Below are positions 5,273 to 42,554 of a stretch of DNA of 64,000 nt, piece after piece. The number at the start of each line of letters is the position of its first letter. Position 1 is the stretch's first letter. The position numbers and the translations under genes are program-made. This stretch comes from a bacterium (GTDB taxonomy: Bacteria > Patescibacteriota > Minisyncoccia > Phycocordibacterales > CAIZLB01). The DNA is taken from the NCBI GenBank assembly GCA_037127815.1, contig JBAXXP010000004.1, positions 4,647-68,646 of the forward strand, in the 5' to 3' direction. Below the pieces are notes generated by a model. It made no database searches. It was not told the origin of the DNA and was given only the letters and a program-made list of their open reading frames with translations.

Positions 5273-5800
5273 ATGAAAAAAATATTATACGCAGTTATCA
5301 TAATCGCAATAATTTTATTAGCGGTATACATAGTTAAATATAGATCAGATAAAGATGATGTGGTGGGAACGCCAATAACTTCTAATCTAGAGGTTAATTT
5401 GGCTACAACATCAGATGTTTCAGTTAAAGACACTACGGTGACTGCACCAAGTACAGATATTAAAAATAATTCTACAAAAAATATGGATACAGAAAAAGTT
5501 TCAAAAGCCGGAGATACATTAACAGTTAACTATGTTGGTACACTTGAGAATGGAACAAAATTTGATAGTTCAATTGATAGAGGTACACCATTTAAGTTTG
5601 TTGTTGGTATTGGGCAAGTTATAAAAGGATGGGATGAAGGAATGGTTGGAATGAAGGTTGGGGAGAAGAAGCGTCTTGTTATCCCTGGAGAGAAGGCTTA
5701 TGGATCAAGAGGTATTCCTGATGGTAATGGGGGATACATGATTCCACCAAATGCAACTTTGATTTTTGAAGTTGAGATGTTGGGAATAGAGAGTAAATAA
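5273..5800 (+). CDS. FKBP-type peptidyl-prolyl cis-trans isomerase, membrane-anchored
   Basis: N-terminal TM anchor followed by a Thr/Ser-rich linker. C-terminal FKBP domain: [58 protein letters not shown]. Confidence 0.85.
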
Positions 5801-5885
5801 AGTAGGAGAATAGGAAAGTAGTGGAATGGTGATGATACGATTTTAGCTTGAATAAATTATAAATCTACCTTCACTGTTCTACGCC

Positions 5886-5957
5886 GCCGCCATAGTTCAA
5901 TGGATAGAACAGTCCCGTCCTAAGGGATTGATGTGGGTTCGATTCCTGCTGGTGGCA
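5886..5957 (+). tRNA. tRNA-Arg (anticodon CCT)
   Basis: Cloverleaf built by hand. Acceptor GCCGCCA/TGGTGGC. D-arm TAGTTCAATGGATAGAAC resembles E. coli tRNA-Arg(CCU). Anticodon loop GTCCTAA. T-loop TTCGATT with a T-stem carrying two wobble pairs. No encoded CCA. Confidence 0.65.
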
Positions 5958-6094
5958 CAGAATTAACGAAGTGAATTTTGGGACGACAAGCAAGCCGATA
6001 CTTCGGCTTGCGGGCAGGAATCGAAAAGGTTCTCCCGTATTTTCGAGAAGCGAGCTTTGAGAAAATGGGAAACCTGTACTGGTCTCGTAGAGAC

Positions 6095-6117
6095 CGATTC
6101 CTGCTGGTGGCACAGAA
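6095..6117 (+). repeat. 23-bp perfect direct repeat of the tRNA-Arg 3' end (copy of 5940-5962)
   Basis: CGATTCCTGCTGGTGGCACAGAA occurs at 5940-5962 (the tRNA T-loop/acceptor 3' half plus 5 nt) and again at 6095-6117. The copies are 155 bp apart. Confidence 0.8.
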
Positions 6118-6260
6118 CTCAATAAAGGTATATCTGAGGATACGCCAATTCTCTGCTAAGAATTGGCTCTGCTTACTGCCGTTCGCAAGTTCCTCAGATA
6201 CACCTTTGTTTCATTGGAGATTATACAAATGCATGGTTTTGGGTTAGTATTATCAACAAC

Positions 6261-7343
6261 ATGTTTAAATGTAAACCACAAAAAGAATACGCACTGATTG
6301 ATGCTGGAAATAGCTTCAAATTAGAAAGATATGGAGAATATCTAATTGCAAGACCAGATCCTCAAGCACTGTGGCCTAAGGCTGTTTATAGCGCCCTGTC
6401 TGCCGTTGTAAAGATAAATAATGATAACATCAACCTTTGGCCTAACATTGATGCTGTGTTTGCTAAGGGAGGGTTTGGAGGCTCAAGTGGGCGTGGTTCT
6501 TCGTCTTCATCTTCTGCTCAAACGGATGATGATAATGACATTGGTAATTGGATTAAGACAAGAGCTATCCCTGAAAAATGGCCTATTAAGTTTGAGATGG
6601 GAGATGGCCTTCCTGCATTAAACATATATGCAAGATTGACTCCATTTAAGCATACTGGAATTTTTCCAGAACAGTTTACAAACTGGAAGTGGTCAATGGA
6701 ATTGATTAATAAAGCAATGGAAAATGACACTGCAGGTGCTGAGGCAAAATTCACAAAAGAAAACCCACCAAAAATATTAAATCTTTTTGGATATTCTGGT
6801 GCTGCAACTGTGGCTTGTCTTTTGGCAGGAGCTCATGTTACTCACGTTGATTCATCAAAGGGGGCTGTAACTTGGGCAAATGAGAATGCAGAACTAGCCG
6901 GAGTATTGGACAAACCAGTTAGATGGATTTTGGAAGATGCTGTTTCATTTATTAAGAAAGAAATTAGAAGAGGAAATAAGTATGATGGAATAATCCTAGA
7001 TCCTCCAGCTTTTGGGCGAGGTGCACAGGGTGAGGTTTGGAAAATCGAAAGAGATTTTTTACCATTCCTAGAATTGATTTTTGAATTACTTTCAGATAAA
7101 GCGTTGTTTGTTATTCTTAACGGTTATGCTGCTGGATATTCATCTATTGCGTATTCACAGAACTTTAGAAATCTTATTGCAAAAAGAGGTGGGGAAGTTG
7201 AACATGGTGAATTGTGTATTGAGCAAGATTTGAACGATTTTAAGAAGATGATGGATGGTGCTACTGTGGGCATGGATACATCGTCAAAACTTGACCCAAT
7301 AGTACTTCCATGTGGAATTGTAGCTCGCTGGAAAAGTCTCTAG
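6261..7343 (+). CDS. Class I SAM-dependent methyltransferase, RlmI/RlmK-like rRNA methyltransferase family, with low-complexity Gly/Ser insertion
   Basis: Methyltransferase fold motifs LNLFGYSGAATVA and GIILDPPAFGRG. The N-terminal region is PUA/RlmI-like. An inserted GGFGGSSGRGSSSSSSAQTDDDND tract is present. Confidence 0.6.
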   Translation: MFKCKPQKEYALIDAGNSFKLERYGEYLIARPDPQALWPKAVYSALSAVVKINNDNINLWPNIDAVFAKGGFGGSSGRGSSSSSSAQTDDDNDIGNWIKTRAIPEKWPIKFEMGDGLPALNIYARLTPFKHTGIFPEQFTNWKWSMELINKAMENDTAGAEAKFTKENPPKILNLFGYSGAATVACLLAGAHVTHVDSSKGAVTWANENAELAGVLDKPVRWILEDAVSFIKKEIRRGNKYDGIILDPPAFGRGAQGEVWKIERDFLPFLELIFELLSDKALFVILNGYAAGYSSIAYSQNFRNLIAKRGGEVEHGELCIEQDLNDFKKMMDGATVGMDTSSKLDPIVLPCGIVARWKSL

Positions 7344-20031: not shown

Positions 20032-20313
20032 ATAGCTAAAAAATAAAACAAAAAACTCATGCAAATTATTGCATGAGTTTTTTGTTTGCTGCACTTCAAT
20101 AAAATTAGCTCGTTAAAATTGTTGCGCCGCCTGCACTAAGGTTTTTGTTCGCTACGCTCCAACAAACCAAGTGCATCGGCATCACATTTTTATAGTCGTC
20201 GCACTCCTTAAAAATTGTGAACAGCCGGTACTAGAATATTTTATTCGCAAAGCTCAAAAATATAAAGTACCGCTGCATCACGAATTTATGCTCACTTCGT
20301 TCGGTAAATTCTG

Positions 20314-42239: not shown

Positions 42240-42372
42240 AGACTCAAATAAAACAGCACGTACAAATTGTATATGCTGTTTTGTTTTTGATGGGCGAGGA
42301 AATATAGTCTTGAAAAGTGCTCTACTTTTAACAAAATAAAAATACACAGACTTGCGTCTGTGTATTTTTTCT

Positions 42373-42391
42373 GTGGGCGAGGAAGGACTCG
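42373..42391 (-). repeat. 19-nt near-identical copy (18/19) of the tRNA-Leu 3' end, preceded by its own hairpin terminator
   Basis: GTGGGCGAGGAAGGACTCG here versus GTGGGCGAGGAGGGACTCG in the tRNA. A shorter copy TGGGCGAGGA lies at 42291-42300, also directly after a hairpin plus T-run. Confidence 0.65.
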
Positions 42392-42554
42392 GTGCATACT
42401 GCCCCAGTACACCTTTGCAATTTTATCGAATCTTTCAGGTTCTCAAAATATAGCAAAGCTTTTCTCGTCCCTCACGTATGTGCCTCAAAGCACACCCTCT
42501 CTCCCTTCATATTAAACAAAACAACATACACGGGTGTGTATGTTGTTTTGTTTA

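Follow-up and report, generated by a model that had tools for sequence, protein, structure and literature searches.

A family of tRNA-linked structured RNAs in Patescibacteria closed by a duplicate of the upstream tRNA 3' end

In a 64,000-nucleotide (nt) stretch of a Patescibacteria genome (contig JBAXXP010000004.1, positions 4,647 to 68,646; the whole of this stretch is referred to as the window), the tRNA-Arg(CCT) gene is followed by a structured RNA element whose closing helix is built from a copy of that tRNA's own 3' end. The element, a three-way-junction RNA named E (E1 is the copy behind tRNA-Arg(CCT), with its core at 6006-6112), belongs to a family that is linked to tRNA genes, has a covarying structure, co-evolves with the adjoining tRNA and is under purifying selection. 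The family is apparently widespread across Patescibacteria and undescribed, i.e. no description of it was found in the literature on its sequence motif or on tRNA-linked and tRNA-like RNAs of Patescibacteria. On balance, the locus is probably a tRNA-Arg gene joined to a member of this conserved, Patescibacteria-wide family that serves as a co-transcribed trailer small RNA (sRNA), reusing the tRNA 3' processing signal. An earlier note on the window had left the choice between an attachment-site scar of an integrative element and a small structured RNA co-transcribed with the tRNA; the covarying and conserved fold supports the latter, with co-transcription itself deduced.

The duplicated tRNA 3' end and its fold

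The tRNA-Arg(CCT) gene has its acceptor 3' strand at 5950-5956 and its discriminator at A5957, and does not encode CCA. The 23-mer CGATTCCTGCTGGTGGCACAGAA has exactly two perfect occurrences (repeat copies A and B, Table 1) and no match in 100 shuffles. ARAGORN, Rfam and the exact matches thus bear out the earlier note, which had recognised a tRNA-Arg(CCT) followed by a 23-base-pair (bp) duplication of its own 3' end. Folding against shuffles gave z = -5.3 for a 155-nt segment and z = -8.9 for a 257-nt segment, and the G+C content of E1 is 51% compared with 36% for the window. The same note had considered no protein gene plausible here and had rejected both overlapping open reading frames (ORFs), and indeed a Pfam search with the two (5871-6122, minus; 5978-6247, plus) gave no match. 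An Rfam scan, which it had proposed, matched no family beyond the tRNA: the gathering threshold yielded seven tRNAs only in the whole window, and permissive settings (E <= 10) over 5800-6300 yielded nothing within 5963-6215.

Three things go beyond that first description, namely that the second repeat forms a closing helix, that a sister element lies behind tRNA-Leu and that the element is of the same kind as the tRNA-linked repeats (TLRs) of Escherichia coli. The family consensus fold, obtained with RNAalifold and a covariance model, is a three-way junction. Its closing helix P1 (7 bp) pairs a 5' strand, NNAGGAN, with the duplicate of tRNA nt 59-65; the junction strands are UCGAAAAG (J1/2), UGUAC (J2/3) and the single base A58, and arm P3 reads UGGUCCU-GUA-AGGACCG. 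Copy B is accordingly the 3' strand of the closing helix of E1's own structure, and continues beyond it with a duplicate of the acceptor 3' strand and discriminator (6105-6112) and then the same CAGAA trailer. An inverted-repeat search found 6014-6025, i.e. the P1 5' strand plus 6021-6025, to be a perfect 12-nt antisense of tRNA T54-C65, and the 3' strand of P3 sits at the positions of tRNA nt 51-57. Minimum-energy folding and the comparative data agree in pairing GCAGGAA (6014-6020) with UUCCUGC (6098-6104), and GGUUC (from 6028) with GAAACC (up to 6074). These pairings are favoured over the GNRA-type hairpin CGGGCAG-GAAUC-GAAA-GGUUC-UCCCG of the earlier note, which is a local alternative; its hairpins AAGCCGA-TACT-TCGGCTT (5990-6011) and GGTCTC-GTA-GAGACC (6081-6095) are both present.

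In the alignment of 68 copies, 91.4% of cells pair compared with 71.0% in column shuffles, and changes on both sides were found at 24 of 27 pairs. The covariation score is 0.518 versus 0.165, a score reached by none of 500 shuffles, and is about 0.1 in a control in which the partner was slid by 1-3 columns. Numerous G.U pairs fall on the tRNA-sense strand, which argues that this is the strand that folds.

Upstream of P1, the segment before P0 is antisense to the acceptor 3' strand. It is degenerate in E1 and better kept in relatives (GACACCA, 6/7, in locus L041; 7/7 in several other loci), and in several loci it is perfect and extends across the trailer, giving a palindrome of 20-27 bp that overlaps the real tRNA's own 3' strand. 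The trailer hairpin between tRNA-Arg and this segment is unlike a terminator because it has no U-tract, and no plus-strand terminator was found in 5700-6400, hence none between tRNA-Arg and E1.

Table 1. Positions of the tRNA-Arg(CCT) locus, the parts of E1, and E2 in the window
Feature	Position	Strand	Description
tRNA-Arg(CCT)	5886-5957	+	ARAGORN (5886-5957/8) and Rfam tRNA model, 58.3 bits
Repeat copy A	5940-5962	+	T-loop C56 to discriminator A73 (A5957) of tRNA-Arg, plus 5 trailer nt CAGAA
Trailer hairpin	5958-5980	+	CAGAATT / AATTTTG, loop AACGAAGTG
Acceptor antisense	5982-5988	+	GACGACA, degenerate; 5/7 pairs with TGGTGGC of the acceptor 3' strand
P0 hairpin	5990-6011	+	GCAAGCCGA-TACT-TCGGCTTGC; a hairpin in most family members, sequence variable
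E1 core	6006-6112	+	Matched by the family covariance model, 97.2 bits, E = 1e-25
P1 5' strand	6014-6020	+	GCAGGAA, pairs with UUCCUGC 6098-6104; helix 1 covaries
Junction J1/2	6021-6027	+	UCGAAAA; G and AA nearly invariant across the family
P2	6028-6074	+	Long hairpin with tandem G.A (CGAG/UGAG), tip variable; helices 2 and 3, double changes at 13/13 pairs
Junction J2/3	6075-6079	+	UGUAC; GUAC without variation in 68 copies
P3	6080-6096	+	UGGUCUC-GUA-GAGACCG; helix 4, 98% paired, double changes at 5/7 pairs
Repeat copy B	6095-6117	+	CG 6095-6096 in P3; A6097 single junction base; 6098-6104 P1 3' strand
Downstream nested inverted repeat	6121-6210	+	90 nt, inner hairpin 6144-6167; between E1 and the methyltransferase gene 6261-7343
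E2	42374-42481	minus	Covariance model 80.3 bits; behind tRNA-Leu(TAG) 42639-42555 (minus)

Distribution and co-evolution with the tRNA

Self-comparison of the window revealed a 66%-similar minus-strand stretch just 3' of tRNA-Leu(TAG). This second copy, E2, folds into the same arrangement as E1, its tail CGAGTCCTTCCTCGCCCA equals tRNA-Leu C56-A73 with one mismatch (17/18) and is followed by CAGAA, and an intrinsic terminator comes directly after it (42369-42338, minus). The interior is common to the two copies, whereas each bears its adjacent tRNA's 3' end. With its filters off, the covariance model found only E1 and E2 above noise in the window.

The motif common to both copies, TGTACTGG-N4-GTA-N4-CCGA-N-TCC (TGTACTGGN4GTAN4CCGANTCC), was matched 29 times in a scan of one genome per bacterial and archaeal species. 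Twenty-five of these matches are in metagenome-assembled genomes (MAGs) of Patescibacteria, including Saccharibacteria, Paceibacterota, Kaiserbacteria and Parcubacteria, and the remaining four are apparent chance matches in coding DNA. Metagenome contigs gave a further 33 matches; a scan of 2.9 million viral contigs gave none, and a blastn search of phage and plasmid collections with the 155-nt unit likewise returned no match. A covariance model (R1) built from 24 copies found 68 copies of E at E < 1e-8, many of them not selected by the motif, in loci fetched from Patescibacteria MAGs and metagenomes; these genome and metagenome contig loci bear labels such as L011, L015 and L062.

E usually lies 10-80 nt behind a tRNA gene on the same strand, and such a tRNA is immediately upstream of 28 of the 33 copies in the genome set. 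Almost any isoacceptor can be the host (Arg with five anticodons, Leu, Val, Ile, Met, His, Trp, Gly, Pro, Asp, Thr, Ser, Glu, Gln, Lys and Cys), and over all fetched loci 49 tRNAs have an E and 53 do not. The copied block normally begins exactly at C56, where the tRNA reads GGTT/CGA and E reads GGAC/CGA. When each copy in the genome set is compared with its own tRNA, nt 56-65 are identical (10/10) in most cases, while nt 66-73 agree at 7-8 of 8 positions in 19 of 28 copies and at about random level in the other nine. The duplication can also take in trailer bases (5 nt in E1, 7 in L041 and 14 behind the tRNA-Thr of L015), and it was therefore DNA that was duplicated and not mature tRNA. Even an unusual T-loop is tracked: in L015, the TTCAAGT of tRNA-Asp is matched by CAAG in its E, together with the antisense CTTG. 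Intrinsic terminators follow many relatives, as they do E2, and what lies downstream varies: L024 has purD, L026 and L028 have further tRNAs, and many loci have terminators.

Comparison with syntenic relatives indicates selection on the element itself. Locus L024, from Paceibacterota, shares the order Grx-FKBP-tRNA-Arg(CCT)-E...methyltransferase with the window. Proteins are 49-56% identical (amino acid) between the two and the tRNA 78%; the E core is 81% identical, i.e. as conserved as the tRNA, compared with 45% for the spacer between tRNA and E and 34% for the sequence after E. L024 also has an extra 2.6 kb encoding PurD and an unknown protein, without mobile genes. A T66-to-C change in its tRNA is mirrored in the tail of its E. 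Locus L041, a relative of about 75% nucleotide identity, has the same arrangement as the window, and both of its repeat copies end in CACAAAAA where the window has CACAGAA; the bases around and just past the processing site therefore change in concert. Among eight near-identical strains the region is without variation.

Comparable systems and competing explanations

TLRs have been known in E. coli since 1978, without an accepted function or origin (Egan & Landy 1978 and Rudd 1999, as summarised in PMC8144298). Strain K-12 has 22 of them at ten loci, each sharing 18-19 bp with the 3' terminus of its immediately upstream tRNA or rRNA gene, and the repeat has been suggested to be a processing signal (PMC8144298). 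Like E, the TLRs RtT/rttR and RrA/RrB/RrF directly follow a same-strand tRNA (or 5S rRNA) gene and end in an 18-25-nt duplicate of that gene's 3' end which begins inside the T-loop. In both, the T-stem strand of the duplicate pairs with an upstream antisense, closing a structured RNA of ~110-170 nt that is followed by a GAGAA-type junction, and both occur in tandem arrays and at many loci per genome, each matched to its own tRNA. Every 178-nt RtT unit of K-12 tyrT/tyrV ends in AATCCTTCCCCCACCACCA, which is tRNA-Tyr from T-loop A58 to CCA, and the annotated K-12 sRNA rttR ends exactly at the tRNA-Tyr copy. The Rfam structure of RtT (RF00391) is closed by GgGaaGGAU / AUCCuuCcC and then GAGAA, and some E variants have an RtT-like closing arrangement, e.g. 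GGGAC-GAGAAAAGC in E2.

Judged from sequence by the defining features of TLRs, E appears to belong to this kind. It occupies the same-strand position right behind a tRNA (E1 within 50 nt of tRNA-Arg(CCT), E2 behind tRNA-Leu(TAG)), and its last 18-19 bp are the 3' end of the upstream gene in E1 (23/23), in E2 (17/18) and in the 19 of 28 family members that retain 7-8/8 acceptor and 10/10 T-stem bases; the other nine have the T-stem part alone. Nevertheless, the interior of E is a three-way junction, containing UGUAC and a GUA triloop, where RtT has a multiloop, and the identity of E with the tRNA begins at C56 instead of A58. Furthermore, E is found in a very distant lineage, the Patescibacteria, with strong covariation and conservation across classes; TLRs, by contrast, are known from Enterobacterales only. 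The RtT model (threshold 45 bits), which scores 133-138 bits on E. coli as a positive control, gave no match in 5800-6300 at E <= 10 or in L018, L011 and L037 at E <= 1; conversely, the E. coli RtT locus scored no more than 11 bits with the E model.

Other functional RNAs arise from tRNA transcripts or are joined to them, and rely on tRNA-like helices to be processed or recognised, i.e. 3'ETS-leuZ, YrlA/Y RNA, mascRNA and the tRNA-like domain of transfer-messenger RNA (tmRNA). E resembles them in being a tRNA-derived or tRNA-attached RNA with such helices, but it has no T-loop/D-loop mimicry, since its T-loop bases pair in P3 and P1. It also lacks an Rfam match, and what it duplicates is its own neighbouring tRNA and not a generic tRNA shape. 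Of these, 3'ETS-leuZ is also mentioned in PMC8144298. No ribozyme or riboswitch of three-way-junction type (hammerhead, twister-sister, purine and others) was matched in Rfam at E <= 10. A hammerhead was rejected by inspection: the strand lengths (7, 5 and 1) are similar, but the catalytic core, CUGAUGA and GAA, is absent.

In the favoured reading, that of a co-transcribed trailer sRNA, E comprises (a) the closing helix P1, its 3' strand a duplicate of the T-loop/T-stem 3' strand of the upstream tRNA and its 5' strand the antisense of this; (b) a three-way junction from which a long arm, P2, and a short one, P3, extend, its junction bases being near-invariant (UCGAAAAG, UGUAC and A); (c) a 3' tail, present in about 60% of copies, which duplicates the acceptor 3' strand and discriminator along with the start of the trailer; and (d), upstream, the trailer hairpin and acceptor-strand antisense. 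It would be transcribed together with the tRNA from the tRNA promoter, as suggested by the lack of a terminator between tRNA-Arg and E1 and by the terminators after E2 and many relatives. The tRNA would be freed by normal 3' processing, which for a CCA-less gene would mean an endonucleolytic cut after the discriminator. The same machinery would set the 3' end of E, because the tRNA's T-stem/acceptor strand, discriminator and start of trailer recur in E within a helix, so that one activity could trim both. The product would be a stable sRNA of roughly 110-150 nt, the released three-way-junction RNA, which would act in trans; the conserved junction would be its working part and most likely a protein-binding platform.

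Several points weigh against this account. The ends, stability and processing of the E transcript are all deduced. Nine of 28 copies keep P1 but have lost the acceptor part of the tail to decay, and thus the tail is not essential for every copy. At several loci (E2, L026 and L029) a terminator-like hairpin stands between tRNA and E, which would therefore need read-through or a promoter of its own, and the closing helix often takes in paired trailer bases beyond the discriminator, in which it differs from a free tRNA 3' end. The alignment behind the pair counts was fitted to the covariance model, and as two thirds of the copies were found by the motif, the invariance of GUAC, GUA and CCGA is partly imposed, albeit copies found without the motif still have these bases. 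Finally, the RtT and E models each fail to detect the other family, so that the link with TLRs is one of architecture and not of demonstrated homology, and TLRs themselves have no known function except for Hfq/CsrA binding by RrA/B/F (PMC8144298).

The scar proposed in the earlier note would be a neutral attL/attR remnant (cis-mobilizable-element-like, CIME-like), left when a tyrosine-integrase element in the 3' end of tRNA-Arg lost its interior and 132 bp remained. E does share with P4-type att sites of the T-loop sublocation a direct repeat that begins in the T-loop and stops shortly after the tRNA end, and tandem accretions occur, with arrays or extra partial tails in L036, L042, L049 and L062, a third tRNA-Leu tail near 42300 and, in L034, two copies of E around a two-gene cassette. 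An att remnant should, however, have an element-derived, decaying and unselected interior, whereas that of E stays constant in size and fold throughout 68 copies at some 20 tRNA species, covaries, and is conserved at 81% where its flanks are at 34-45%. No integrase or transposase adjoins the copies examined, and a Pfam search for such enzymes beside tRNA-less copies and in the L024 insert returned only DUF695, DUF7678, TauE, UvrD, Abi_alpha, a YgaP-like protein and PurD. The phage, plasmid and viral collections searched are empty of E, and E1 and E2 are only about 66% alike within one genome, so there was no recent burst. The earlier note had taken an identical arrangement with compensatory changes in relatives as the mark of a functional RNA; the alignment of related genomes that it suggested found this arrangement and such changes, at 24 of 27 pairs. 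Because of this and the conservation, a neutral scar was excluded and is given very little credence here.

A less passive mobile origin is unlikely, albeit with a good deal in its favour. E and F, a second tRNA-linked family of longer elements described below, would be present or past non-autonomous mobile elements that target the tRNA T-loop and duplicate nt 56 to the trailer, their structure (as RNA or folded single-stranded DNA) serving mobility. Their cores are unrelated but have the same insertion architecture and position, sometimes in tandem behind one tRNA (L018, L011), divergent E subfamilies stand together in one L036 array, and closely related cores occur at different tRNAs (E2 at Leu-TAG, L031 at Val-TAC). 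The duplication of up to 14 nt of trailer points to a DNA-level event, L034 has orphan copies with tRNA fragments, and long perfect palindromes over the tRNA 3' end are found in 14 of 49 tRNAs with E and 5 of 53 without. Against mobility, the same E persists at the same tRNA across ~50% protein identity under purifying selection, no enzyme was found to accompany it, near-identical copies are absent within single genomes and the left end has no conserved terminus. Mobility may explain the origin of E and is compatible with a present function for the host.

A switch acting on the cognate tRNA is quite doubtful. In it, the 5' half of E, antisense to nt 54-73 plus trailer, would pair with either the real tRNA or its own copy, a masked antisense by which E would sense or control the folding, processing or decay of that particular tRNA. 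The 12-nt perfect T-arm antisense of E1 fits this, as does the upstream antisense 7-mer of copies that have lost the tail, which is kept at 6-7/7 and belongs to a 20-27-bp palindrome reaching through the tRNA's acceptor 3' strand and trailer; such palindromes stay perfect between orthologues by compensated changes (tRNA-Pro of L026 and L029), and trailer bases co-vary in both copies. However, the tRNA folds first during transcription, making invasion of its acceptor stem kinetically unlikely, the acceptor antisense of E1 pairs at only 5/7, and such palindromes are also present in some tRNAs without E. Far more remote is a guide RNA akin to an omega-RNA or homing CRISPR RNA (crRNA), in which GGTT would be the protospacer- or target-adjacent motif (PAM/TAM) and GGAC in E would prevent self-targeting. 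A scaffold of ~110 nt is indeed followed by an exact 18-23-nt match to the tRNA gene, with GGTT/CGA in the tRNA and GGAC/CGA in E, but this "guide" is paired to the scaffold in P1 with covariation and often also to the upstream antisense, an intact target with its PAM lies beside every copy, no nuclease or transposase gene is nearby, and a third of the tails have decayed. It is equally hard to credit that E is a riboswitch or attenuator leader of the methyltransferase gene 6261-7343: E1 and the 6121-6210 hairpin are directly upstream of this gene, yet the downstream neighbours differ among family members, contradicting such a role. An intron in the T-loop was ruled out since a complete tRNA precedes the element, as was a reverse-transcribed mature tRNA, since the repeat holds up to 14 nt of trailer, usually without CCA.

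More speculatively, and with considerable doubt, E, F and the enterobacterial TLRs could form one ancient class in which sense and antisense of the tRNA 3' third frame a functional core, acting on the cognate tRNA (controlling folding, processing or decay through strand exchange) or spreading by T-loop-targeted duplicative insertion. The TLR design in Patescibacteria, at many tRNAs per genome and with conservation across classes and covariation, argues for selected RNAs and not recombination debris; Patescibacteria have streamlined genomes of about 1 Mb. The large and diverse alignment with a defined three-way junction is a basis for testing function. For annotation, the family explains recurrent partial tRNA duplications and GC-rich intergenic islands in genomes of the candidate phyla radiation (CPR), which might otherwise be misread as att sites, pseudo-tRNAs or spurious ORFs.

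Further tRNA-linked features

The genes flanking tRNA-Arg and E1 are ordinary bacterial ones (LepA, Fic, DivIC, FKBP and a SAM-dependent methyltransferase). The nested inverted repeat that the earlier note placed at 6125-6207 exists (6121-6210) but is a separate feature: it is missing from the syntenic relatives L024 and L041 and is thus outside the conserved element and lineage-specific. It may be the terminator of the tRNA-E unit, or the 5' untranslated region or leader of the methyltransferase gene. The pentamer CAGAA stands right after the discriminator in tRNA-Arg (5958-5962), E1 (6113-6117), tRNA-Glu (20308-20312, minus) and E2 (42369-42373, minus), in the last of these where the real tRNA-Leu continues CCA-TAA, and may represent the local 3' processing-site context for CCA-less precursors.

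Behind tRNA-Leu(TAG), the order on the minus strand is a terminator-like hairpin (about 42553-42512), E2 and a second terminator (42369-42338). About 35 nt past the latter is a third, partial tRNA-Leu 3' end, TTTCCTCGCCCATCA (about 42303-42289, minus), with a terminator of its own that is homologous to the hairpin directly after tRNA-Leu; it looks like the remnant of an earlier unit of a tandem array. The trailer of tRNA-Glu(TTC) (20060-20312, minus) starts with CAGAA and has a hairpin with the loop ACGAAGTGA, a motif that recurs from the E1 trailer hairpin, a P2-like arm with tandem G.A closed by GGUAC/GUACC, a hairpin with the loop GGAGCGTAGCGAA, and a degenerate tRNA-Glu 3' strand, CCGGCTGTTCACA. 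It is probably a third, divergent tRNA-linked element, missed by covariance model R1.

Family F is represented in L018 (about 1290-1450), L011 (about 5945-6110) and L037 (3841-3990), all on the minus strand, by the motifs GAGAAAGCCGG ... GAGGCGGGGTCGCGA ... GTGACCGAnTCC and then a tRNA tail. The closing-helix design is common to F and E but the interior is different, and F is sometimes in tandem with or fused to E; an Rfam scan of the three loci gave nothing relevant. In L034 (3700-5290, minus), two copies of E, each after a tRNA 3'-end fragment without an intact tRNA, flank a cassette of a DUF695 gene and one unknown gene. In L020 (3290-5510, plus), an ORF and a foreign tRNA-tail fragment lie between tRNA-Gln and its E, with an Abi_alpha gene after, and E sites may be hotspots for gene insertion. 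Finally, a loop motif, RCGNAGYGA / GGAGCGAAGCGA, is found at hairpin tips of trailers and of P2 (L035 2950-2975, L024 4095-4115 and window 5965-5973); it contains the GCGNAGC mini-hairpin sequence and is also present in E. coli RtT as AGCGaAGcgAGA.

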